Shown: in pieces, positions 598 through 13,852 of the stretch
Position numbering within the stretch: the stretch's first letter is position 1
Layout: every line of letters starts with the position of its first letter
DNA from: Bdellovibrionales bacterium
GTDB lineage: Bacteria > Bdellovibrionota_C > UBA2361 > SZUA-149 > JAGRAN01
Direction of reading: 5' to 3'
DNA: 64,000 bases
Assembly (NCBI GenBank): GCA_020434585.1
Contig: JAGRAN010000043.1
Span: 1,157-65,156, forward strand
The notes under the pieces: model-generated
The model's input: the letters and a program-made list of their open reading frames with translations, nothing else
Told to the model about the DNA's origin: nothing
The model's database searches: none
Program-made: the position numbers and the translations under genes

Positions 598-714
598 AAA
601 AGGTTGAGTACGGGACCCCGAAACCAGCTTCACCCGAGGGTAGAAGCTGGACACGGAATGCCGTTCCCAACCAACCCGGGGGTGATAACCTCCAATATCA
701 CACCCCGGGGTTGG
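598..714. repeat. Conserved structured element A, copy 1. Core is AAAGGTTGAG-N-ACGGGACCCC followed by GC-rich stems CCCGGGGGTGATA...TATCACACCCCGGGG.
   Basis: About 115 nt, shared with 2126..2239. It contains strong hairpins, with compensatory G-U/G-C changes between the two copies. It lies between two minus-strand genes. Confidence 0.6.
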
Positions 715-730
715 ACCAGCGACGACGCGG

Positions 731-1714
731 CTACTCGAGAATGAAGTAGCGCACGCCGGCGAAGTCGTCGGGAGCCGTACCGGTACCAGCGAAGCGAGCC
801 AGAACACCGTAGTCCGGAGCAGTCCACTCGGGCCAGAGCACGTCCTTGACATAGGCGCGCCAGGTGAGCGGATTGCCGTCTCCAGTGCGATTGGCCGGCG
901 GAAGCTGGTAGTACTCCTGCCAGCTGACCACCTTGGTCTGCGGCGGCGTGCTGGGATCACCATCGTGATCCACCTCGATGCGCGTGTAGAACGCAGCGCG
1001 TCGAGACAGCTCGTCCGTCGTCATCGGCCGGCGGTAGTACGGATCCCACTTCTGCCAACAAACGAACTCGAACTTGCCGTAGTCGTTGTACAGCGACGGA
1101 CGCGAACTCCGGAGAGCCCATACCGTGATGCCGCGAACGAACGGGAAGTCCTTGATCAGACGCTCGTCGTGGTGCTTCCAGTACTCGGCCATCAGGCGGT
1201 TGTACTCCGCGAGATCGCCAGCGGCCTTCGCATCCTCTGCGGCAGCCAAGGCTTCCGCGGCGAGGAGCATCAGACGCTGACGCTCGTTCCACCACTTCAG
1301 TTCGGCCTGCGAGATGAGACCGGCCTGCTGCAGCTGAACGAGCCGATCCTCCTCCTCCGCGTTCAGGCCGTCACGGTCGATGTTGACCGTGTTGCCCTGA
1401 CCGTTGATCTGGATGATCGTCCCGGTACCCGTGTTGACCGCCGCTTGACCGCCCGAGGGCGAGTTGACGGTAGCCGAAGGGGTGCTGGGATCCGAAGCCG
1501 CCGGCAAGCCGGAAGCCGCGGGGTCGGAGGTGGTGCCGCCCGTCGAAGCCGAACCCGAGGGATCGACCGCGGTGGAGGCCGTGGAGGCCGTGGTCGTCGC
1601 AGTCGGCTCGCTGGTGCCGCGCCTGTTGTTGAACAGCACGTACACGAGCAAGAAGACGACGGCGACGGACAGAAGGAACAGAGCGATGTTTTTCTTATCC
1701 CTGAGCCAGTTCAT
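731..1714 (-). CDS. Hypothetical signal-anchored protein (327 aa). It has a Ser/Thr/Pro/Ala/Gly-rich linker and a Trp/Tyr-rich C-terminal domain of unknown family.
   Basis: Long ORF. N-terminal KKNIALFLLSVAVVFLLVYVLFNN is a signal-anchor/TM. A low-complexity STP-rich region follows. The antisense 282-aa ORF at 965..1813 is judged spurious. Confidence 0.7.
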   Translation of the reverse strand: MNWLRDKKNIALFLLSVAVVFLLVYVLFNNRRGTSEPTATTTASTASTAVDPSGSASTGGTTSDPAASGLPAASDPSTPSATVNSPSGGQAAVNTGTGTIIQINGQGNTVNIDRDGLNAEEEDRLVQLQQAGLISQAELKWWNERQRLMLLAAEALAAAEDAKAAGDLAEYNRLMAEYWKHHDERLIKDFPFVRGITVWALRSSRPSLYNDYGKFEFVCWQKWDPYYRRPMTTDELSRRAAFYTRIEVDHDGDPSTPPQTKVVSWQEYYQLPPANRTGDGNPLTWRAYVKDVLWPEWTAPDYGVLARFAGTGTAPDDFAGVRYFILE

Positions 1715-1885
1715 GATGTTGCCTTCCTATTCCTTTCGGAATGGTTGGTGGACACCGAAACGCCGTTTGAGCGCGTCGGCAGATTGGTTTGGGAGCGCCA
1801 GACGCATGTCTGACTACAACTCCCCGGGAGCTGCCGAACAACGGTGTCCGACGAACAACTCCCTCCTGGGTGTGTAAGTGAAAGA

Positions 1886-1960
1886 AACCCTATCGTGCGC
1901 GAGCACAATGGGGTCCCGCTACTCATATGGCTTGGTTAGCTAACCAAGAAATCAAGGACC
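1886..1960. repeat. Conserved element B, copy 1. Core is AAACCCTA...GGGGTCCCGCTACTCATATGGCTTGGTTAGCTAACCAAGAAATCAAGGACC.
   Basis: About 75 nt, shared with 2476..2556 at about 85% identity over the core. It contains the palindrome TTGGTTAGCTAACCAA. It sits 170-250 nt upstream (minus sense) of the paralogous genes. Confidence 0.6.
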
Positions 1961-2125
1961 AGCACTTTGATGGCACCCGTGGTGATACACGGAGCCGTGC
2001 ATATCATTGTTATGGAGCTTGCGGGCCTTTTAGTGATGGGAATTAGCGGATGGGGTAGAACGATTATTCTAGTGTTCGCTATTTTGTTCTGCTCGTACGA
2101 CTCTAGGTACACAGGTAACTGGGTT

Positions 2126-2239
2126 AAAGGTTGAGAACGGGACCCCACAAACAGTTTCGCCCACATGGGTGAAGCTGAGTGTGCTGTCTAGAGCTCAGCC
2201 TTCCCGGGGGCAACAACCTCCTACTTGTCACCCCCGGGC
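2126..2239. repeat. Conserved structured element A, copy 2.
   Basis: AAAGGTTGAGAACGGGACCCC...CCCGGGGGCAACAACCTCCTACTTGTCACCCCCGGG. Same architecture as 598..714. Confidence 0.6.
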
Positions 2240-2251
2240 CAGTCATCGCGT

Positions 2252-2410
2252 TCACTTGCCAGAGCCCTCCTCGAAAGGAATGGCGGTCTTGAACTTGTAA
2301 CCTGAATTTCCGTGGAAATTGTAGGTCAGGGCCAAGCCGAGCAGAAACGCGACCAGTAAGCCCAGCAGCAGAGCTACGAACTTTCGCTTGTTCATCACGA
2401 ACTTCGTCAT
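2252..2410 (-). CDS. Unannotated small protein (52 aa), a signal-anchored peptide. It is a paralog of the N-terminus of the 731..1714 product.
   Basis: Manual translation gives MTKFVMNKRKFVALLLGLLVAFLLGLALTYNFHGNSGYKFKTAIPFEEGSGK. The TM segment aligns with KKNIALFLLSVAVVFLLVYVLFNN of the 327-aa protein. It falls below the 60-aa ORF-track cutoff. It is flanked by elements A2 and B2, exactly as the larger paralog is flanked by A1 and B1. Confidence 0.5.
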   Translation of the reverse strand: MTKFVMNKRKFVALLLGLLVAFLLGLALTYNFHGNSGYKFKTAIPFEEGSGK

Positions 2411-2475
2411 GGCTGTTCCTTCCTGTCCGCGTCGGGACGGTTGATGTATTCGAACTGGGTGTGATCTCCTAGGAC

Positions 2476-2556
2476 AAAAACCCTAGTACGCGGGTAAGCG
2501 TGTAGGGGTCCCATTACTCATACGGCTTGGTTACTAAACCAAGAAGTCAAAGACCC
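2476..2556. repeat. Conserved element B, copy 2.
   Basis: AAACCCTAGTACGCGGG...GGGGTCCCATTACTCATACGGCTTGGTTACTAAACCAAGAAGTCAAAGACCC. Arms TTGGTT/AACCAA are conserved and the centre varies. Confidence 0.6.
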
Positions 2557-2638: not shown

Positions 2639-4012
2639 CTATAACTGCTGATAAAGCTTCTGTATCGCACTAAGGGCATTCTCGGACGCCACCAGTCTGC
2701 GATCACGCTTCGACAGACGCCTGCCGGAAGCATCCTTGGTCGAACCCAAGGTATAAGAAGGCATTAAGCCAAAGCTAATGTTCATTGGCTGAAAGTCTTT
2801 TCGCTGCGGGTCGCTAATGTAGCGCATTAAGGATCCGATGGCGGATTCGTGAGGAAACTCCACCATCTCCTCTCCACTGACTATTCGCGAAGCGTTGATC
2901 CCCGCAACCAAACCTCCGGCTGTTGATTCTACGTAGCCCTCCGTTCCGGTAACCTGACCCGCGAAGAACAAGCCTGGGCACGCACGAAAACTGAGCGTCG
3001 CATCGAGGCATTTAGGAGAATCGATAAAAGTGTTTCGATGGACCGAGCCAAGTCTAACAAACTCAACATTTTCCATCCCACTAAGAGTTTTAAAAATTCT
3101 GGTCTGCTCGCCGTGGCGCATTCGGGTCTGCATTCCGACCATACTCCACAGCGTCCCCGCCCTGTCGTCCATGCGCAGCTGCATAACCGCATACGGTTCG
3201 CGGCCAGTTCGCGGATCTTTCAGCCCCACTGGCTTGAATGCGCCAAAGCGCAAGGTATCTGGCCCACGACGGATGACATCTTCGATCGGCATGCAGCCTT
3301 CGAATGGCCGCAGATTATCGACCATGTCCGACTCCACCTCATCATGTCCGCCAAACTTTTCTGCGCGCGTAACTTCGTCAATGAAGGTGTAGTACTGCTC
3401 CCTGCTAAACGGAATGTTTAGATAATCATCTCCGTCGCCCTTGTCATATCGAGATGCTCGATACATCTGACTCATATCTAGCGATTCACCCAAGACAATC
3501 GGACTTATTGCGTCAAAAAAAGCTAAACTGCTCGACCCCGTAACTTTTTCTATCGCCGATGCTAAGGGCGCTGAGGTCAGCGGACCGGTGGCCACAATCA
3601 GCGGCTCAGACGGGTTGGCCTCTGGAAGCTGCTCTATCTCCTTTTCGCTAAAATTGATTAAGGGATGCGAGCGAATACGCTCATCGATATACTTGCTAAA
3701 TAGGACTCGATCTACGGCTAGCGCGCCGCCCGCAGGAACTGCAGTGGCATCAGCAGCTTCCATAATCAACGATTTCATCTCGCGCAGTTCAGCTTTCAAC
3801 AAGCCGACTGCATTGCTCAAATCTGCTCCGCGAAAGGAGTTGGAACACACTAGTTCCGCGCAGGAACCGGTCTTGTGTGCTTTCGTCATCGACTTGGGAC
3901 GCATTTCGAACAGCTGCACCGCTACGCCTCGCTCAGCTAGCTGCCACGCCGCCTCGCTTCCCGCTAAGCCGGCACCGATAATCTTTACGCACTTGCTCAT
4001 TGAACCAGACAC
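2639..4012 (-). CDS. trmFO: Methylenetetrahydrofolate--tRNA-(uracil54-C5)-methyltransferase TrmFO (Gid)
   Basis: 457 aa. N-terminal FAD-binding GAGLAGSEAAWQLA motif. Global similarity to TrmFO/GidA-like flavoenzymes. Confidence 0.85.
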   Translation of the reverse strand: MSGSMSKCVKIIGAGLAGSEAAWQLAERGVAVQLFEMRPKSMTKAHKTGSCAELVCSNSFRGADLSNAVGLLKAELREMKSLIMEAADATAVPAGGALAVDRVLFSKYIDERIRSHPLINFSEKEIEQLPEANPSEPLIVATGPLTSAPLASAIEKVTGSSSLAFFDAISPIVLGESLDMSQMYRASRYDKGDGDDYLNIPFSREQYYTFIDEVTRAEKFGGHDEVESDMVDNLRPFEGCMPIEDVIRRGPDTLRFGAFKPVGLKDPRTGREPYAVMQLRMDDRAGTLWSMVGMQTRMRHGEQTRIFKTLSGMENVEFVRLGSVHRNTFIDSPKCLDATLSFRACPGLFFAGQVTGTEGYVESTAGGLVAGINASRIVSGEEMVEFPHESAIGSLMRYISDPQRKDFQPMNISFGLMPSYTLGSTKDASGRRLSKRDRRLVASENALSAIQKLYQQL

Positions 4013-4159
4013 AGCATATTACCGCATTTTATACTAGGTAATTAAATTCAAGATCCCGCAACGCTGGACTTTTGTCAGCAAAAACCGATAGAAGGACTAC
4101 CACAAATCGTATCATTCGCTAAACTTCCCCCTACCCCATGCATTGAAAGGAGAACATCA

Positions 4160-5422: not shown

Positions 5423-7027
5423 ATGAAGCAAGATGTTCGATTTTTTAAGATTGTAGATCGCGAGGGTCCCGAAGACTTCGAGACAACGCTGGCGTTTCAG
5501 CAGAACCTGCTTAAATCAAAAGTCGAAGATCGCAGCCTGCTCGACACTCTGGTTCTCGTTGAACATGAAGAGGTATACACTGCAGGGCGCGGATGCGATT
5601 TTCAAACTCCGCTTGCCTCCGATGCCTCCCGCGTGCCCTGGGTAGAAATTGGCAGAGGTGGGCAGGCCACATTTCACGGCCCAGGACAGCTCGTCGCCTA
5701 TCCGATTTTCGACTTAGAACATCATGGACGTGATGTTCACATATTTCTGCGGATGCTCGAAGAAACAATCATCAAGACCCTGGCCGAATTTGATGTTGCG
5801 GGCCAGCGACGCGAGGGCCTGACCGGTGTGTGGGTGACGCTAGACGGACAGTGGAGAAAAATTGCGTCTTTAGGCATCGGAGTACGGCGCTGGGTGTCCT
5901 ACCACGGATTGGCGCTCAATGTTTCTCCTAACCTCGATTTCTTTAAAGCAATCTCCCCTTGCGGCCAGGACGGCGCAATAATGACATCGCTGGAAGAGGT
6001 CAGACGATCAATGGATCGAGTCACTCCGAGCATGGCTGAGATTAAGCAGGCCCTAACTCTTGCCTTTTGCGACGTGTTTTCAATGTCGCTCGACGAGGAG
6101 AAAAGCTTACTTGCCGGCAAACGTCCGCGTTGGATTAAAGCTAAGGCTCCAGGGTCCCCGGAGTTCATGGAAACGCTCAACATCGTAAAGAGCAAAGGAC
6201 TAGTAACAGTTTGCGAAGAAGCGCGCTGCCCCAATATCGGCGAGTGCTGGTCACACCACACCGCAACCTTCATGATTATGGGCGAGCTGTGCACGCGCCG
6301 CTGTGCCTTTTGCTCAGTAAAGGATGGTCTTAAAACTACATTAGAACCACTCGATATTTTTGAACCGCTGAAAGTTGCGCGAGCCGTCAAAGAATTGAAC
6401 CTGAAGCATATCGTCGTTACCTCGGTAAACCGAGATGACCTCGAAGACATGGGAGCTGCTCACTTCTATCGGACGGCAAAGGCCATCAGAGAGGCCAATC
6501 CCGAATGTAAAATCGAGTTTTTAATCCCCGATATGCGCGGGCGACGCGAACTGCTTGAGACTATTTTAAAAGACAACCTCGTACACGTGCTTAACCACAA
6601 CATCGAAACTGTACCCAGACTCTATAGAACCGTTCGACCTGGAGCGAAGTTCGATCGCTCCCTTGACATTCTGCGTTGGGCTAAAGAAATCCACCCATCC
6701 GTGAAAACGAAGTGCGGCATTATGGTCGGTTTAGGCGAACGCCGCGACGAAGTTACTCAAGTTATGGATCGACTTCGTGAGATCGATGTAAACATTATGA
6801 CTATCGGTCAATACTTGCAGCCGTCCAAAAAGCAGCTGCCCGTCAAACGCTTCGTCACTCCTGAAGAATTTGAAGACTACAAGCAGGAAGGCATCAATCG
6901 CGGCTTTTCGTTTGTGGAATCTGGGACTTTTGTAAGAAGTTCATACCACGCATGGAAACACACAGAAGAAGCTGAGCGGGCCGAGAGGCATTCTGAGGCA
7001 CCTACGCACGCACACGCAACTTTGTAG
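5423..7027 (+). CDS. lipBA: Fused octanoyltransferase LipB / lipoyl synthase LipA (534 aa)
   Basis: N-terminal half has the LipB fold (HEEVYTAGRG, GQLVAYPI). C-terminal half is radical-SAM LipA, with CEEARCPNIGEC and CTRRCAFCSV cysteine clusters. Single continuous ORF. Confidence 0.85.
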   Translation: MKQDVRFFKIVDREGPEDFETTLAFQQNLLKSKVEDRSLLDTLVLVEHEEVYTAGRGCDFQTPLASDASRVPWVEIGRGGQATFHGPGQLVAYPIFDLEHHGRDVHIFLRMLEETIIKTLAEFDVAGQRREGLTGVWVTLDGQWRKIASLGIGVRRWVSYHGLALNVSPNLDFFKAISPCGQDGAIMTSLEEVRRSMDRVTPSMAEIKQALTLAFCDVFSMSLDEEKSLLAGKRPRWIKAKAPGSPEFMETLNIVKSKGLVTVCEEARCPNIGECWSHHTATFMIMGELCTRRCAFCSVKDGLKTTLEPLDIFEPLKVARAVKELNLKHIVVTSVNRDDLEDMGAAHFYRTAKAIREANPECKIEFLIPDMRGRRELLETILKDNLVHVLNHNIETVPRLYRTVRPGAKFDRSLDILRWAKEIHPSVKTKCGIMVGLGERRDEVTQVMDRLREIDVNIMTIGQYLQPSKKQLPVKRFVTPEEFEDYKQEGINRGFSFVESGTFVRSSYHAWKHTEEAERAERHSEAPTHAHATL

Positions 7028-7044: not shown

Positions 7045-10000
7045 ATGACGAATTCGCCGCCCCCTCCTCGCCGTCGAGTTTCGGTGAAGCGGCTAATTGT
7101 TGTGCTACTGTTGTTGGCCGGCTTTTTTGCAATCCGCCCATCGCTTGATGATACATTAAAGTCGATTGTTGAAGACGTTTTCACTAAGGGCACTGGCTGC
7201 AATACAACGATCCAGTCGGCACACCTACAATTTATCCCAATTGGAGCGACTGCTGAAAATGCCGCAATTCGCTGTGAAGGAGAAAACGCGCCTGGCGGAT
7301 TCACCGCCAAAAAGGTTTCTATCCGGATCGATCCGCTGCAGTTATTAGGCAAGAAGATCTACTTGCAGGATTTGCACATCTCCGGTGCTCAAGTAGTCAG
7401 TATTGGAACAAAGTCGGCACTAATTAAGACTGTCGAATTCGTAACGGAGAAACCAGCCCCCAAACCCAACGCCAAAAAGAGCTGGCACTCGTTCATTTCA
7501 ACTGGTTGGAAGGTTGAGCTCTCTGGTCTTGAAATAAGTTCAGCTCCCCAATCCGCTTTTGACACTCCTCGCTCCGGACCCGAAGACGAGCTGTGGCAGT
7601 CGCCGGATCTTACCATCGGAGTCGATGACTTTGAATTTGTTTGGAAGGACGTTCGCTTTACAGCCACGCATACCGAACGCAAGTACCCTTTCAGCCGACT
7701 CTTTGCTAGAGCGGGAGGTTTCGGAGTTAAACGCCGCGATGCGGGAGGGATCAGTTTAGGATATATCGACGCTGGCGTTTCCATCGAGAACGGACGGCTC
7801 GAAGTAATCCACGCCTATACGCGCTACGGACCTCCGGCAGGCCAGCCGCAAGTCTCACGCTTAACCGCCGAGGGCGGTATGAACATCCGCGACCGAACAT
7901 ACGATTTCCGCGCAAAAGCAGACCTCTATCCCGAATTCCTGGCCACATTGCTTCCCGCCGCGTCTAAGACAATTTTCGACAGCGAGCTTAAAGCTAGCAT
8001 AGACGGTACAGTCACTGGAAAGTTAAGCGACCCAATCCTTACCGGCGACTTCAATTTCCGCGTAGCATCGCCGCTTGCCATGTATGAACAAGAGGCCTGC
8101 GCGTTTAAGCGTATTGATTCTAAATTTAAGCTGACAACTGACCTGCTCCACCTTTACGACATTCAAATTGGGGACCTCATATCGAGTTCTGACGTATCGC
8201 TGCAGCTTCTTGGCGATTATGCGTTCACTGCCGATCTTGATTATGCCATCAATCGCAGCTCGCCATTTGTCGAGAAGTGCCTAGCCGCGACTGACAGCTC
8301 GGGCGAACAATGGCTTGACGTCACTCTACGCAACGCTGTCGCAAACTCTAGGGGAAATGTTGCTGCAAGAGGCACAGTCTCTCCACTATTTGCAAACGGA
8401 ACTTGGGTTTCTCACTTTCACAGCACAGACGTAAGCGACAAAGCTACCCTCAAAAGCACGTTTAACCTTTCCGATGGCAAACTTTCCGTTTCACTTAAGG
8501 AACGTGGGGATGTGGCGCAGGTTAGGGAGTCGCCAATTATTGACGAAGGAGCTGCGACTGCGCGCTCAACAACCTTTCAGACCACAACAAACGCAAATAT
8601 TGATCTCGTGCTGGCCTACTACTTCGGCAGCGGTAAACTTGGTTTAGAAAAGTGCCGCGTCAAGCGCTACCCCTTAAGCCGATTGCTCGCCAGACTTGCG
8701 CCGTTTATGCCGCAGCGTGTTCTTGCAAATGCGAGCGATTTCGTTACGGAAGACAGTTTGCTTGACTTGAATTTCAAGCTTTCGAGAGACGCGGCAGATA
8801 AACCGTGGATCGGCAATGGCACTATCAATGCCCGCAGCCTTGAGTATCACGGATTCCCCGTCACCAGCCTCGATGCTCCGTTCTCGATGCAAGGGGGAGC
8901 ACTTGAAATTTCCGAGATAACGGCGACATCGGCATTTGGACAGCTTAATGGCTCCATTGCACTCGGAGCGAAGGATACCCTAAGCGGCACTCTCCGATTG
9001 GACGTACCGGACCTTTCCTACGTCCCGTGGTGGAAGGACGTCATGCCCGACATGACCGCCGCACTTCAAGGTGTAGTTGAACTGCAAGGCACTACCGATT
9101 CACCGAATATAAAGGGCGAACTGCAAATACAACCCTCGACGGATTTAGACTCGCCGATCGAGCTCGTTTCTTACACATCTTTTAAAACGGAATCTGGGGC
9201 ACTAATCGGAGATGCGGAACTTTTTGGTAAACGAGCATCCGCAACTTGGTCTTACCCGTTAAGTGAAGATTCCAAGAAACCGTTGAAGATCGAAATGCGT
9301 GCCGACAAATTCCCAATCAGCGTTTTGCTTCCTTCACATATTCGTAAGCTGCTGTCCGAACAAGTTTCGGATCAAAATGGCTCGCTCAGCGGCACTTTGA
9401 TTTACTCGGCTGCTCCCCCGAATCTTAACCGGGGGAACGGCGAACTCACCTTAGACGAGCTCACGTTACAAACACCCTCTGCCCGAATTCGCAATCCGCA
9501 GCCAATATACATAGATATCGTCGAAGGCACGTTCAAATTTAACGACTTAATTCTACTTGCTAACGACCGGGAGCTAAGCATTAAGGGCTCAGCTGGTGCC
9601 GTGACAGGTTGGAACGTCGACTTAAGTTCAAATTGGGAACTCGGCGCGCTGACGTCAATGATCCGACAAGTTGAGCAGCTCTCCGGCGAACTAGAACTAA
9701 ACGCCAGTATATATGGAGACTTTGACAGCCCGCGTTTGGCCGGCTCAGCTAAACTTCGCAAGGGTACGGCATCAATGAAGCTGGATGAAACCTTCATCGG
9801 TGCAAACAAACTAGAGGGAGAAATCCGGATCGCCGATGATTCGCTGCTGCTTGAACGATTAGAAGGTCAAGTCGGGCAAGGACACTTAATAGCTCAAGGT
9901 CGTCTGGATCAGCTGTTTAGTCCTACATCAAGAAACGGCGTGATTGAAATTGTCGCGACCGAGGTATCAATTCAGCCTTCCGATGTAATTAATATTCGAT

Positions 10001-11004
10001 TCAGTGGATACTCCGACATTGTTTTGGAACCTAGCCTGCCCCCGCTGATTAAAGGAGAGATCGAGATTCTGGGCGCCCTTTACGAAAGGAACGTCTCGCT
10101 CGGAGATATCATCGAAGCAGCTCTTTCCCTGCTGCGCGACCAACAAAGCGTTAAGGTAAAACGTGGGGTAGCTGCCGACCGAGACAGCACACGTCTCGAC
10201 GTTCGACTGCACGCCGGCGAATCGCTTCAAATTGAGAGCGATCTACTTAAGACCACGATGCGCGGTGACGTCAGAATCGGCGGAACGACTCTTCAACCGA
10301 CCGTTGAAGGCGATATTCAAGTGCTCGAGGGCTCGTTTGGACTGAGCTCTTCAAAATTTGATATCCTCAGCGGTTCGATAACATTTCCCAAGAACTCACT
10401 CGTAATCGACCCAGAAATATCGTTTGCAGCTGAAACTGTCGTCCAGACAAGCTCTCGCGAAGAACATCGCGTGCTGCTAACTCTAGGCGGCACAGCCAGA
10501 AATCCGGATGTCGGCATGTCGACCGACAGCGGCATGAGTGAAAGGGAAATTGTTGGCCTGCTCAACATCGGCGGATCTACTGGGAGTCTTTCCCTTCTAT
10601 CTTGGGAACAGGGCCGCGATGACTACACTTACGCCGAACTCCTTAGCCCAAAAACTGACATCAGCTTGCGCAATAGATTAAAGAGTCTGCTTGGATTTAG
10701 TAGATTCGAAATTGAAACTAGACGCAGAGTGGAAACGAACGAGCTAATCCCTCGTGTTGCGGGATCGCGCGAGGTTACACCCGATCTTTCCTTCACTTTG
10801 TACTCAGATCTTGGCGGCAGCTCCAATGAGCAAGGGGCCAAACTGGACTACGAACTAACTCCGTATGTCGGTGCCTTTGCCGAATGGCGGAGCGAACCGT
10901 ACACGAAGGATGAATCATCCGCAGGTGTGCCGGGCGCAGGCCTCATCTTTCGCCGAAATTTTCCCGGGACAGGCATTCTCCCAAGACAGCTGGTGGAAGA
11001 ATAG
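7045..11004 (+). CDS. tamB: TamB-like translocation and assembly module protein (1319 aa)
   Basis: N-terminal signal-anchor. Very long beta-rich repetitive body. C-terminal DUF490-like region. It is immediately followed by an Omp85 gene. Confidence 0.7.
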   Translation: MTNSPPPPRRRVSVKRLIVVLLLLAGFFAIRPSLDDTLKSIVEDVFTKGTGCNTTIQSAHLQFIPIGATAENAAIRCEGENAPGGFTAKKVSIRIDPLQLLGKKIYLQDLHISGAQVVSIGTKSALIKTVEFVTEKPAPKPNAKKSWHSFISTGWKVELSGLEISSAPQSAFDTPRSGPEDELWQSPDLTIGVDDFEFVWKDVRFTATHTERKYPFSRLFARAGGFGVKRRDAGGISLGYIDAGVSIENGRLEVIHAYTRYGPPAGQPQVSRLTAEGGMNIRDRTYDFRAKADLYPEFLATLLPAASKTIFDSELKASIDGTVTGKLSDPILTGDFNFRVASPLAMYEQEACAFKRIDSKFKLTTDLLHLYDIQIGDLISSSDVSLQLLGDYAFTADLDYAINRSSPFVEKCLAATDSSGEQWLDVTLRNAVANSRGNVAARGTVSPLFANGTWVSHFHSTDVSDKATLKSTFNLSDGKLSVSLKERGDVAQVRESPIIDEGAATARSTTFQTTTNANIDLVLAYYFGSGKLGLEKCRVKRYPLSRLLARLAPFMPQRVLANASDFVTEDSLLDLNFKLSRDAADKPWIGNGTINARSLEYHGFPVTSLDAPFSMQGGALEISEITATSAFGQLNGSIALGAKDTLSGTLRLDVPDLSYVPWWKDVMPDMTAALQGVVELQGTTDSPNIKGELQIQPSTDLDSPIELVSYTSFKTESGALIGDAELFGKRASATWSYPLSEDSKKPLKIEMRADKFPISVLLPSHIRKLLSEQVSDQNGSLSGTLIYSAAPPNLNRGNGELTLDELTLQTPSARIRNPQPIYIDIVEGTFKFNDLILLANDRELSIKGSAGAVTGWNVDLSSNWELGALTSMIRQVEQLSGELELNASIYGDFDSPRLAGSAKLRKGTASMKLDETFIGANKLEGEIRIADDSLLLERLEGQVGQGHLIAQGRLDQLFSPTSRNGVIEIVATEVSIQPSDVINIRFSGYSDIVLEPSLPPLIKGEIEILGALYERNVSLGDIIEAALSLLRDQQSVKVKRGVAADRDSTRLDVRLHAGESLQIESDLLKTTMRGDVRIGGTTLQPTVEGDIQVLEGSFGLSSSKFDILSGSITFPKNSLVIDPEISFAAETVVQTSSREEHRVLLTLGGTARNPDVGMSTDSGMSEREIVGLLNIGGSTGSLSLLSWEQGRDDYTYAELLSPKTDISLRNRLKSLLGFSRFEIETRRRVETNELIPRVAGSREVTPDLSFTLYSDLGGSSNEQGAKLDYELTPYVGAFAEWRSEPYTKDESSAGVPGAGLIFRRNFPGTGILPRQLVEE

Positions 11005-11005
11005 C

Positions 11006-13852
11006 ATGCTGCATCGCGCTTACATACTAGGTGTCGCTGCTCTTATTTGGAGCGTATCATTCGCGGCACCCGCTGCTGCAGCAGAACCACAACTAGACTA
11101 CACTCAGTTATCTGGCGCGCTGTCGGGCAAGTCCGTAAGCACTGTTAGTTATTTGCGCGGCCAAAGTGTAGTAGCGCTACAGCGAGTTCCAAAAGCTGCT
11201 CGAATTTTGCCTGAGACTGTGCTTGAAGCAGAGTCCGTATCTAACGCAGTAAAAGCGCTGTATCGCCAGGACATTTACAGCCACATTGATGTTGAAGCAA
11301 AAGTTGAAAAGGGCAATCAAGTTGCGCTCAAGTTTTATCTAACACCGACGTTGATAGTTAGAGATACCGAATTCTTCGGCGTAACTGCATATAAATCGCG
11401 AGAGCTGCGTCGGATTGCAGGACTTAGACGAGGCAGGCCCGTTGACCCGCGAACAATGCTTGATGCGGTTCAAAAACTCGAAACAGCTTTTCACCAAGCC
11501 GGTTACTACCAACCTCGCATTGACGTTACGCTTAGACAAAGCCGGAGTCTTTCTTCAGTGCTGGTCCAATTCACTGTTATTGAAGGCAAGCGTTCTGTTG
11601 TCAGTAATATAACTCTCGACGGCGAAATTCCTCCCGATTTATCAGCAGTTGTCGAGAAATATATTAAGCGCTCTCGCAAGGCTATCGCGTCAAAACGCCG
11701 AGTTGAAGAGCTACGTCGTGAGCTGGTTCGGACCCTGCGGGGCGAAGGATACCTTGAGGCTGCTGTGCGCACGGAGAGCTTGCGCTACCTCCATGAGTCA
11801 GGTGACATTGCTTTAGAGTTTGCAGTCGATGTTCAGCAGCCGATAAGCATCAGCTTTACTGGAAATGTTCACTTCAGCGCGTCGGAACTTATCGAATTGC
11901 TGAAACTTGACACTAGGACAGCACCATTCGGCCCCAACGCCATCCCTAATTTTGTTCGAGATATTCGCGACCTTTACGAACGCGACGGTTATTACGGCGT
12001 TAAGCTCTCGCATCAGGCATTGTCCGATTCCGGAGCAAGACGCCGCCATCTAATCGAAATAACCGAGGGTCCAGTCAGTCGGATTAAGAGAATTCGCTTC
12101 GACGGCAATGCTGCGTTCAGCGATGACGAACTTAGCCGCCTGATCTCGACTAGCGAACCCAGCGTAGTCTTTGCACCTTGGAAGAAAGGCTTCCTGGTCA
12201 GCGCTCGCCTGGCAAAGGATGTTGAATCGATAAAGGATTTCTACCGAACTAATGGATTCTTTTATGCAGAGATAAATTCAGACGTTCAAACACGCAGCGA
12301 CGGCAAGCAGCTGGTTGTCAGTTTTGTTATTAAGGAAAACAAACAAACTACTGTTTCGTCTGTAATTGTTAATTGGATCGATGCCGCGAAGCCAAACCGT
12401 AAAGACATTGCTGCTAAATTGTTAACAATTAGTCCAGATATCATGTTGGGCGATGTTTTGTCGGTGGCTGCGCTCGAACAAGCCCGCCAAAAATTGCTCT
12501 CTGACATATACGCGCTCGGTTTCCCCGAAGCTCGAGCGACTCCACGCTATGACATAGACTCTGGAGAAGTTGGGTTCGATGTATCTCTCGGGCAGCAAGT
12601 CACCGTTGCGGACATAGTAATTCGAGGTAACCGCGCTACGCTTAACTCGGTAATTCGCCGTGAGTTGTTGGTTTCTCCGGGCGAGGCTTGGAACCCTGAG
12701 TTAATTCGAAAATCTGAACACTCATTATATCAACTTGGAGTTTTTCAGAATGTAAAACTCGAGCCGGAAGACGGCGCGATTGATCAAGCGGAAGAGGTCT
12801 TGGCGGTTTCGTTGATCGAACGTGATACTGGGGGTCTAGCAGCGGGCGTTAGCTACAACACGGAAGACGGGATTGGCTTGTTGACCGAGCTTTCCCAGCG
12901 CAACGTTTTCGGCAGAGCTCACAGATTCGTTTTAAGCGCAGAGTTGTTCTTTCGCAACGGAGACAGATTTATTGACGCCGCTCGGGGCCGAGTCGGTTAC
13001 AACCTTCCCCGCTTCATCACGCGCGACGGCGAACTTTACTCCGAGATATTTGCGCAGGAAGAAGTCGAGTTCTCTCAGAGCTTCAGTTACGACCGGCACG
13101 GCGCGTCAACGGTATACCGTCAGCAGCTTACCGAATCGCTCAGCGGTAGCCTCGGTTATACTATTTTCAACGAAAACTTGTTTGACGTCCCACAGGCGAT
13201 AGTTGCGGGACCGAATGATAGCGGCCACACATTTTATTCAGGAATCCGCACTGAGTTAATTCTTGATAGGCGAAACGATATTTACAATCCTTCTTCTGGT
13301 TATCAATCAAAACTTGCCCTGTTCGCGATGCCGGAAGCTTTTGGTTCAGAAGTATCGATTGTTGGCGCTACATTTACCCAAAGCTTTTTCTTGAAATTTA
13401 ATGAATCGCTTGTCTGGGCGAATAACGCTCGAGCCGAGATTATCGAGCCTTTCGCTAGTACCGACGTAGTTCCTTTAGGACGCCGGCTGTTTTTGGGCGG
13501 CCGCACAACTCTTCGCGGCTACTCACCTAATTCAATCGGCCCAAAAGGCGACGAAGGCTACGTTGCTGGAGGTGATTCCAGCTTGCTGCTCAATTCGGAG
13601 CTGCACTTCGAAGTTGCCCAGGACGTAATACTCTTGACGTTTCTTGACGTCGGCCAAGCGGTGCTACGCCATCGAGGCACTTTCGAAGGAGACACTCAGT
13701 CGTACTTCGGCGACCTTAGATACTCCCCGGGATTGGGGCTGCGCTATCGCAGTCCGATCGGCCCGATCGGTGCGGACCTGGGATTTGCCGTTAATCAGAA
13801 AAAGGGAGAAGAATTCGGTCGCTTGTCGATCAACATCGGCGGAGCGTTTTAA
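11006..13852 (+). CDS. bamA: Omp85-family outer membrane protein assembly factor (BamA/TamA-like, about 948 aa from ATG 11006)
   Basis: Signal peptide MLHRAYILGVAALIWSVSFAAPAAAA. Multiple POTRA-like repeats. C-terminal beta-barrel ending in aromatic-rich strands (...GFAVNQKKGEEFGRLSINIGGAF). The ATG at 11006 lies 1 nt after the tamB stop. The track start at 10865 overlaps tamB and is rejected. Confidence 0.8.
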   Translation: MLHRAYILGVAALIWSVSFAAPAAAAEPQLDYTQLSGALSGKSVSTVSYLRGQSVVALQRVPKAARILPETVLEAESVSNAVKALYRQDIYSHIDVEAKVEKGNQVALKFYLTPTLIVRDTEFFGVTAYKSRELRRIAGLRRGRPVDPRTMLDAVQKLETAFHQAGYYQPRIDVTLRQSRSLSSVLVQFTVIEGKRSVVSNITLDGEIPPDLSAVVEKYIKRSRKAIASKRRVEELRRELVRTLRGEGYLEAAVRTESLRYLHESGDIALEFAVDVQQPISISFTGNVHFSASELIELLKLDTRTAPFGPNAIPNFVRDIRDLYERDGYYGVKLSHQALSDSGARRRHLIEITEGPVSRIKRIRFDGNAAFSDDELSRLISTSEPSVVFAPWKKGFLVSARLAKDVESIKDFYRTNGFFYAEINSDVQTRSDGKQLVVSFVIKENKQTTVSSVIVNWIDAAKPNRKDIAAKLLTISPDIMLGDVLSVAALEQARQKLLSDIYALGFPEARATPRYDIDSGEVGFDVSLGQQVTVADIVIRGNRATLNSVIRRELLVSPGEAWNPELIRKSEHSLYQLGVFQNVKLEPEDGAIDQAEEVLAVSLIERDTGGLAAGVSYNTEDGIGLLTELSQRNVFGRAHRFVLSAELFFRNGDRFIDAARGRVGYNLPRFITRDGELYSEIFAQEEVEFSQSFSYDRHGASTVYRQQLTESLSGSLGYTIFNENLFDVPQAIVAGPNDSGHTFYSGIRTELILDRRNDIYNPSSGYQSKLALFAMPEAFGSEVSIVGATFTQSFFLKFNESLVWANNARAEIIEPFASTDVVPLGRRLFLGGRTTLRGYSPNSIGPKGDEGYVAGGDSSLLLNSELHFEVAQDVILLTFLDVGQAVLRHRGTFEGDTQSYFGDLRYSPGLGLRYRSPIGPIGADLGFAVNQKKGEEFGRLSINIGGAF

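Follow-up and report, generated by a model that had tools for sequence, protein, structure and literature searches.

On the minus strand of a 64,000-nt stretch of DNA from a Bdellovibrionales bacterium (contig JAGRAN010000043.1; hereafter the window, whose positions are used for all coordinates unless another locus is named), two tandem open reading frames (ORFs) are each framed by two hairpin-rich elements, A and B, which carry mutually complementary cores. This arrangement raises the question of what such elements do at the two ends of a gene, and three answers had been offered in the initial annotation of this DNA: a pair of RNA elements in the untranslated regions (UTRs) at the 5' and 3' ends of one transcript, an operator for a dimeric regulator, and a cassette family mobilized by recombination. 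The 5'-UTR/3'-UTR RNA pair fits best, as the predicted helices are better on the gene strand, covariation in B and the leader is above that of controls, and a promoter-like box is present in all four units compared. On balance, we regard it as somewhat probable that A and B are transcribed UTR elements of a lineage-restricted gene that encodes a membrane-anchored orphan protein.

The copies A1/A2 and B1/B2 are true repeats. A repeat finder gave 83% identity between B1 (1910-1963) and B2 (2505-2558), 81% between A1 (594-635) and A2 (2121-2162), and 72% between A1 (668-710) and A2 (2196-2238), and each core pattern occurs exactly twice in 64 kb, with chance expectations of 0.03 and 0.00. Both minus-strand ORFs are present, one of 327 amino acids (aa; 731-1714) and the other of 52 aa (2252-2410), and in the direction of the gene each unit is composed of the promoter-like box, B, the rest of a long leader, the ORF and A. 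The palindrome TTGGTT-N4-AACCAA can be read in both B copies. The A and B cores are also reverse-complementary, as had been described: the reverse complement of ACGGGACCCC is GGGGTCCCGT, which matches B1, and GGGGTCCCA is found in B2. The length of 9-10 bp assigned to this inverted repeat was too short, however, and the actual core, TGAGTA(N)CGGGACCCC, has 15 bp and one bulge. Similarly, the shared B element is real but had been drawn too small; conservation runs further upstream to take in the promoter-like box, up to about 2037 (unit 1) or about 2620 (unit 2), and continues downstream across the whole leader to the start codon. The proposal of two tandem duplicated units, one of them truncated, agrees with these repeats and with the match of the 52-aa ORF to the N-terminus of a related protein, P0002.

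The unit of B, leader, gene and A was also found beside trmFO in related uncultured bacteria, at two fully assembled loci: L001, the locus of P0002 in metagenome-assembled genome (MAG) GCA_030431555.1, and L004, the locus of the protein P0003. Their neighbourhood is that of the window, with TamB, a lipoate-synthesis protein (Radical_SAM + LplA-B_cat), an E2 acyltransferase and trmFO, the last of which stands beside both units in the window (2639-4012, minus strand; Pfam GIDA, E=1e-92). B, A and the entire leader are recognisable in both L001 and L004, and the comparison comprised four complete units (window units 1 and 2, L001 and L004) and the partial L011. The latter is one of the Logan contigs L011-L014, only about 1.2 kb long, that carry the distant homologue P0006. 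Even with a protein only ~31% identical, adjoining fragments of the leader and of A hairpin 1 persist in these contigs, namely the leader 3' domain (GTTCGTC.GGAC...GTCCGGCAGCTCCCAGGGAG) and the GGAGGTT loop of A hairpin 1.

Between genomes, nucleotide identity is 83-88% for A, 81-88% for the B core block and 67-74% for the coding sequences, while the trmFO proteins are 77-81% identical among three genomes and the protein of the unit only 52-62%. Upstream, conservation reaches its limit in a stretch beyond the unit-1 promoter-like box (2038-2079, minus) that can be aligned with L001 and L003; by blastn, L003 341-1473 aligns with window 2079-982. Judged from these identities, A and B appear to be conserved like functional non-coding DNA, though not uniquely.

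A box of the form (A/G)(T/G)CAC(T/A)-N17-(C/T)ATAA(C/T) is located at the equivalent place upstream of B in 4/4 units, with a spacer that is fixed at 17 nt and variable in sequence. In unit 1 it lies at 2009-2037 (ATCACT 2032-2037, 17-nt spacer, CATAAC 2009-2014) and in unit 2 at 2592-2620 (GGCACA 2615-2620, 17-nt spacer, TATAAT 2592-2597), both on the minus strand. This degenerate pattern, which was derived after the sequences had been seen, is matched only twice across the whole window, once at each unit. If transcription starts after the box, B would be the first ~115-130 nt of a leader that is ~290 nt long in unit 1. Another candidate, a sigma-70 promoter inside B (TTGAYT ... TATGAG), was rejected on its spacing of 22 nt.

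The consensus fold of B on the gene strand consists of a 5' hairpin Pa, a variable Pb, an extended Pc, whose top is the palindrome TTGGTT-N4-AACCAA, and Pd, in which an outer stem GGGACCC/GGGUUUC is followed by a U-tract. Alignment and consensus fold place B1 at 1880-2003 on the minus strand (Pa 1986-2001; extended palindrome hairpin Pc 1922-1957; core 1910-1925; Pd 1884-1917; U-tract 1880-1886) and B2, also minus, at 2473-2586 (Pa 2569-2584; Pc 2517-2552; core 2505-2520; Pd 2477-2512). Over the alignment, 93.9% of cells are paired and nine pairs are changed on both sides, a result reached by no more than 2 of 500 column shuffles, and in slid controls only 23-45% of cells are paired. The outer stem of Pd is 100% paired via four changes of G·U to G-C or A-U, and such pairs can form on the gene strand only; the consensus fold too is better on that strand (-24.7 kcal/mol) than on the opposite one (-17.6 kcal/mol). 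The initial annotation, which had described compensatory differences in the stems of A, is supported in that the hairpins are conserved and show such differences. Pd is the sole terminator-like site reported by the scan in 400-2800, and both Pd and A are predicted, from their folds, to function as terminators.

The palindrome CTTGGT-N6-ACCAAG of B, and possibly the cores too, might alternatively serve as double-stranded DNA operators for a dimeric regulator of the gene. The half-sites are invariant with a variable centre, the L004 change preserves the dyad, and the palindrome is close to the promoter-like box. However, the helix extends past the palindrome via non-palindromic pairs, namely an invariant U·G and one pair changed on both sides from U-A to C-G; the site is ~50-80 nt downstream of the predicted start rather than over the box; no regulator gene is adjacent; and A and the rest of the leader would be left unaccounted for. 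An operator function is, on these grounds, very unlikely.

The 3' domain of the leader, which in unit 1 occupies 1715-1879 (minus) and is conserved even in L011, contains the helices P-I (1843-1849/1750-1756), P-II (1831-1837/1776-1782) and P-III (1791-1824), and ends with a hairpin (1730-1741) in front of the Shine-Dalgarno (SD) sequence (1722-1728). The model used for this domain is the minimum free energy fold of unit 1, which brings some bias toward that structure; under this model, 92.4% of cells are paired over four sequences including the distant L011, with eight double-sided changes (for example, U-A to C-G in the helix UCGGCAG/CUGCCGA), and these pairing levels and double changes were reached by 0-1 of 500 shuffles. 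RNAalifold proposed a rival local hairpin, GUCGGAC/GUUCGGC, which uses nucleotides of the helices GGACACC/GGUGUCC and UCGGCAG/CUGCCGA, and two GGGAG and two CUCCC blocks offer further alternative pairings.

Mutually exclusive pairings in the 3' domain (GGGAG/CUCCC twice, and hairpin X versus P-I/P-II), a long conserved leader of many helices, and a terminator-like hairpin with a U-tract are features shared with attenuator or riboswitch-type leaders, and from its model the domain looks like a regulatory switch with a riboswitch-like architecture. Unlike known riboswitch-type leaders, it belongs to no Rfam family at gathering threshold; indeed, no Rfam match at gathering thresholds was found in the whole window, and at E up to 10 the region 400-2800 gave only sub-threshold matches to mir-191, SAM-Chlorobi and osmY. 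The mir-191 match, with 33 bits versus a gathering threshold of 54 and present on both strands, reflects generic long-hairpin similarity. A second conserved AGGAGGGAG is located ~170 nt upstream of the start codon.

Several small ORFs in and around the leader were considered and rejected. The ORF from the ATG in CCATATGAGTAGC (MSSGTPLC...; window 1711-1926 and 2479-2520, minus) has no SD and is inconsistent in frame and length, having 10-12 codons in L001, L004 and unit 2 but extending over 71 codons, up to the main start codon, in unit 1; it is probably untranslated, though it may be a leader peptide. A TTG/CTG ORF that follows AGGAGG in the leader shifts frame between the window and L001. 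An ORF of 54-55 aa on the opposite strand (1967-2134, plus), which is annotated between the units, for instance in L015-L018, overlaps the unit-1 promoter region, is absent from L001 and is likely spurious. Since these small ORFs are conserved in neither frame nor length, conservation of the leader appears to act on the nucleic acid.

At the other end of the gene, A has an identical two-hairpin architecture on the gene strand in 4/4 units, with z between -4 and -8. Hairpin 1 has the base CCCGGGG/CCCCGGG and a loop that always contains GGAGGUU, while hairpin 2, of ~70 nt, has the base GGUUG...CAACC and is followed by UUUU or UUU. A1, the predicted 3' UTR of unit 1, lies at 594-712 on the minus strand (fold -68.9 kcal/mol, z -5.7), with hairpin 1 at 675-710 (loop UUGGAGGU), the long hairpin 2 at 602-672 containing the core (605-619), and a T-run tail at 594-601; A2, its counterpart in unit 2, lies at 2121-2238 on the same strand, with hairpin 1 at 2203-2238 (GGAGGUU in the loop) and the long hairpin 2 at 2129-2200 containing the core (2132-2146). 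As with B, the consensus fold is better on the gene strand (-51.1 versus -42.0 kcal/mol), and the single folds are better on that strand in three of the four units, the exception being the decayed unit 2. Paired cells amount to 91.2% with three double changes, which 47 of 500 shuffles also reached, so that the pair counts agree weakly with the predicted structure.

The tails of the long hairpin read TTTT, TTT, TTTTCTTCT or TTTTCTTCG, and fall outside the loop-length and T-count limits of the terminator scan. A1 had also been placed in the 5' leader of the gene at 1-484. It does lie upstream of that gene, but it ends in a terminator-like hairpin and a T-run and more likely closes the transcript of its own unit than belongs to the leader of its neighbour. 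The GGAGGUU loop (window 675-710 and 2203-2238, minus; L001 ~6940-6975; L004 ~1420-1453; L011 ~1150-1185) is SD-like, and the opposite strand reads the anti-SD-like AACCUCC; one idea is that the loop may bind ribosomes and thereby stabilize the mRNA.

The complementarity between the ends of the unit was examined by local complementarity scoring instead of RNAduplex, which made long spurious duplexes on whole regions (z about -1). When the whole upstream region was scored against the whole downstream region, the same core pair came out on top in 4/4 units: TGAGTA(N)CGGGACCCC versus GGGGTCCCG(N)TACTCA, with 15 bp and one bulge. In this duplex 96.7% of cells are paired over the four units, and two apparent breaks are mended by a shift of the bulge. 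In L004, GGAACCCC pairs with GGGGTTCC, both sides having changed (one G-C to A-U double change), and L001 and unit 2 each have one transition, which produces a G·U pair on the gene strand. Within A's own hairpin, the position co-varying with B falls in an internal loop, and hence the local fold of A does not explain the co-variation. Furthermore, the B core (16 nt) forms the 5' arm of Pd and the A core the 3' arm of the last hairpin in A; because only one arm of each hairpin is common to B and A, the match does not represent a complete hairpin duplicated in inverted form. When full transcripts were folded by partition function, the long-range helix reached a probability of ~1.0 for unit 2, as against 0.39 for unit 1. 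End-to-end pairing of the two cores, as read from these alignments, is plausible, and we put it forward tentatively.

A number of observations weigh against the pairing and against the UTR interpretation as a whole. Both cores are buried in stable local hairpins, and in L001 and L004 the folding gave the long-range helix a probability of only 0.00-0.01, the local hairpins winning. The long-range helix was matched by 111 of 500 shuffles and is not significant with four sequences, and the whole comparison has only these four sequences plus one partial. The A core would be transcribed 0.4-1.3 kb after the leader terminator, so that it could not steer attenuation in cis. At the DNA level, the A tails have only 3-4 consecutive T, the -35-like hexamer of the promoter-like box is weak, and a stricter sigma-70 scan reports no promoter in this region; given this negative scan and the post hoc derivation of the motif, the transcription start can only be a presumed one. 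The conservation of A and B is not exceptional either, as the trmFO-E2 intergenic region is likewise 72-80% identical between three genomes. Finally, the UTR model leaves two features of the unit unexplained, namely the G+C content at third codon positions (GC3) of 0.81-0.85 and the inverted unit of L004.

It is conceivable that A and B are UTR elements, with an attenuator leader and a 3' terminator, and that their complementarity has no function, being a leftover of hairpin origin or a coincidence kept by the local helices. The pairing of both cores with local partners in every unit, the equilibrium folds of L001 and L004, and a long-range covariation that consists of a single, non-significant double change would all suit this explanation. 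In contrast, a whole-hairpin duplication does not account for the sharing of one arm only, the L004 change from GGGACCCC into GGAACCCC has a counterpart in A, at a position left unpaired by A's own hairpin, and the core pair tops the complementarity scoring in every unit. We consider a functionless complementarity rather unlikely, and a UTR pair with contacting ends is preferred.

To our knowledge, few natural cases of pairing between 5' and 3' UTRs have been described in bacteria, the known ones being icaR and hok. In hok/sok-type mRNAs, which are highly structured and encode a membrane-inserting product, the fold-back inhibition (fbi) element pairs the 5' end with the 3' end, and tandem or degenerate copies occur, as they do here. 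Unlike hok/sok, the present unit encodes an anchored protein of 327 aa, with a large extracytoplasmic domain, and not a toxin of ~50 aa, the 52-aa ORF is a deletion remnant of a long gene, and neither an overlapping mok-like frame nor a Sok-like antisense promoter is evident. The icaR mRNA of Staphylococcus aureus has a conserved 3' UTR stretch complementary to its own 5' UTR, and this motif pairs with the SD region and triggers cleavage by RNase III (PMC3868564). The present units resemble icaR in having complementary 5' and 3' UTR stretches, conserved in the homologues, and in the proposal that pairing of the ends controls the fate of the transcript. In contrast to icaR, the pairing does not cover the ribosome-binding site, with the B core at 1910-1925 and the SD at 1722-1728; the 5' partner is ~190 nt upstream of the SD and inside a terminator-like hairpin; and in this comparison, made from sequence alone, it is an SD-like GGAGG, not an anti-SD, that is located in the 3' UTR loop.

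The 327-aa protein has an N-terminal membrane anchor, a Ser/Thr/Pro-rich linker and a conserved C-terminal domain. When 5.8 billion proteins were searched, and searched again with a profile, the only relatives of full length were P0002 and P0003, found together with fragments from the organism of the window itself; HMMER, run exhaustively over 1.84 billion representatives, contributed one more, distant relative, P0006. Neither the 327-aa nor the 52-aa protein has a meaningful match in Pfam, PHROGs or NCBIfam, a PDB sequence profile search with the 327-aa protein was negative, and tblastn of the unit's protein against phage and plasmid collections gave no match. AlphaFold modelled the full-length protein with a predicted local distance difference test score (pLDDT) of 47 and the C-terminal domain with 68.6, the latter without a PDB fold match at E<=0.001. 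By these searches, the family appears to be very small and lineage-restricted.

The 52-aa ORF, previously taken for a truncated paralogue with an N-terminus like that of its neighbour, keeps the first of these attributes only: it aligns with the N-terminus of P0002 (BLASTP E=1e-9, 39% identity over 41 aa) and gives no BLASTP alignment with the neighbouring 327-aa protein, being of another subtype. It retains only the membrane anchor and the next ~20 residues, has a GC3 of 0.74, and its stop codon abuts A2. The leader of unit 2 is shortened (2411-2472, minus) and, according to the alignment, lacks ~110 nt of the 3' domain, while the pre-SD hairpin and the SD are retained. Since the 52-aa ORF matches P0002 and not its neighbour, and the B and A elements of unit 2 differ from those of unit 1 by 17-28%, unit 2 appears to be an old paralogue that later lost most of its coding region and the leader 3' domain by deletion. 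Both units contain the same gene family, with no second kind of cargo.

A rather different explanation is suggested by the composition and orientation of the gene. The GC3 of the 327-aa gene is 0.81 versus 0.43-0.58 for the 43 other ORFs of the window, which makes it the sole outlier among 44, and values of 0.81-0.85 are found in all four homologues (window 731-1714, L001 6001-6924, L004 438-1391, L011 231-1136), the neighbouring host genes having 0.43-0.65. Foreign origin, biased gene conversion or expression-linked codon bias may be the cause. In L004 (1-1600), the entire unit including the promoter box adjoins trmFO but is convergent with it, whereas the two are co-directional in the window and L001; the L004 contig ends 437 nt upstream of the gene. 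Moreover, the four independent assemblies L011-L014 end at nearly the same two points, just after the expected site of the B core and just after A hairpin 1, which suggests repeated, variable or polymorphic flanks in that genome.

These features would suit a small mobilisable or recombining DNA module, in which the inverted cores of 15-16 bp are sites for a recombinase encoded elsewhere that inverts the gene, as a phase switch of a surface protein, or moves the module to trmFO. The tandem duplication in the window and the presence of inverted cores around the gene in every copy point in the same direction, as do the contigs of the distant homologue, which in four samples break off at shared points within B and A. 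Nevertheless, the cores are internal to the unit, as conservation extends ~110-170 nt past the B core and ~10 nt past the A core, leaving the promoter, Pa-Pc and the tail outside; the L004 inversion comprises the whole unit and not the segment from core to core; the L011 contig breaks off at points other than the cores; and both arm mismatches are G·U-compatible on the gene strand. No obvious target-site duplication was seen by eye in the flanks of the L001 unit. The assemblies compared, five for the window organism and three for the L001 organism, are all collinear, although assemblies show the majority form only. No recombinase, transposase or integrase was found when 31 of the window's 44 long ORFs were scanned with Pfam, and no recombinase is recorded among the called genes of L001/L002.

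The suggestion of a cassette family did not hold, as neither the window and the related loci nor the collections of viral, genome and metagenome contigs yielded a further copy of A or B, and the gene is of the same family in both units. Profiles of A, B and the leader searched with nhmmer found only the units themselves in the 64-kb window and related loci, and pattern scans of viral (3), genome (1) and metagenome (2) contigs returned only the known MAG and two hits, L006 and L007, which are chance matches inside unrelated coding sequences. Three short metagenome contigs, L008 (JGI), L009 and L010 (ENA), are 100%, 99.8% and 100% identical to part of the window gene and then run into unrelated GC-rich sequence, which in L008 is the ORF of a 2Fe-2S protein. 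They were rejected as rearrangements; their joins lie inside the coding sequence, at window ~948, ~1520 and ~1325, and not at A or B, and they are probably assembly chimeras.

Like integron cassettes, the unit is short, gene-sized and bounded by imperfect-palindrome elements, and the base of A's long hairpin carries heptamers resembling the GTTRRRY and RYYYAAC of attC. Unlike attC, their polarity is reversed on both strands (plus 5'-GTTGAGT...TCCCAAC-3', minus 5'-GTTGGGA...ACTCAAC-3'). Two different elements rather than one attC flank each gene, the unit has its own promoter-like box, the 31 long window ORFs scanned and the L001 neighbours include no integrase, and there is no array of diverse cargo. 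With miniature inverted-repeat transposable elements (MITEs), insertion sequence-derived elements and dif-module-like cassettes, the unit shares inverted repeats of 15-16 bp that frame a gene, foreign GC3, and either orientation at one locus. Unlike MITEs and dif modules, its repeats are internal instead of terminal and without an obvious target-site duplication, no dispersed copies occur in the 64 kb of this genome that were searched, no other copies or recombinase were found, and the arm mismatches look like RNA wobble pairs. The stretch from B1 to A2 was also considered as a MITE of ~240 bp with GGGG...CCCC ends and was rejected, as genomes with a single unit would hold only half-elements.

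Taken together, a DNA module that recombines at its cores is improbable. A DNA-level reading is kept at this low level because GC3, the L004 inversion, the tandem copy and the contig breaks of the P0006 loci are left unexplained by the UTR model. Its most specific form, which we find more improbable still, is a minimal gene module of promoter, leader, gene and terminator that circulates among related uncultured bacteria and is inserted or flipped beside trmFO by a recombinase acting in trans at the 16-bp cores. If true, such a module would account for the persistently foreign GC3, for the tandem copy and for the orientation that is reversed in one genome, and it would be a recombinase-less type of single-gene cassette unlike integron cassettes or MITEs.

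Two further observations concern the neighbouring genes. The intergenic region between the divergent trmFO and E2 genes (4013-4159) is about as conserved as A and B and presumably holds a shared promoter or regulatory sequence. In addition, the ORFs of TamB (1319 aa, 7045-11004) and of an Omp85/POTRA protein (995 aa, 10865-13852) overlap by ~140 nt, probably because the second ORF was opened at the earliest start codon available.

Under the favoured reading of A and B as UTR elements, the gene is present in the window as two old tandem paralogues, and each unit would be a self-contained transcription unit on the minus strand. Downstream of a sigma-70-like box, transcription would yield a structured leader (~290 nt in unit 1) that begins with B, where Pd and its U-tract might act as an attenuator or mark the end of a short leader RNA. 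The multi-helix 3' domain would then reach the SD, with the ORF next, followed by A as the 3' UTR, in which a hairpin displays GGAGGUU and the ~70-nt hairpin with its U-run would end the transcript. In such a transcript, the B and A cores could pair with each other instead of with their local partners, bringing the 3' end into contact with the leader, either within one mRNA or between a leader RNA and another transcript, and this contact might tune mRNA stability or read-through of the leader terminator.

For the biology of these bacteria, the reach of the finding is small, as it concerns three or four uncultured organisms and one orphan gene, and only the GC3 anomaly and the flipped unit hint at anything out of the ordinary. 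The types of element, that is, an attenuator-type leader, a terminator-bearing 3' UTR and a possible 5'-3' pairing, are already known, while this example is undescribed. If the favoured reading is true, the units would represent an undescribed pair of structured leader and 3' UTR without an Rfam counterpart, in which the complementary ends of the mRNA appear to co-vary.

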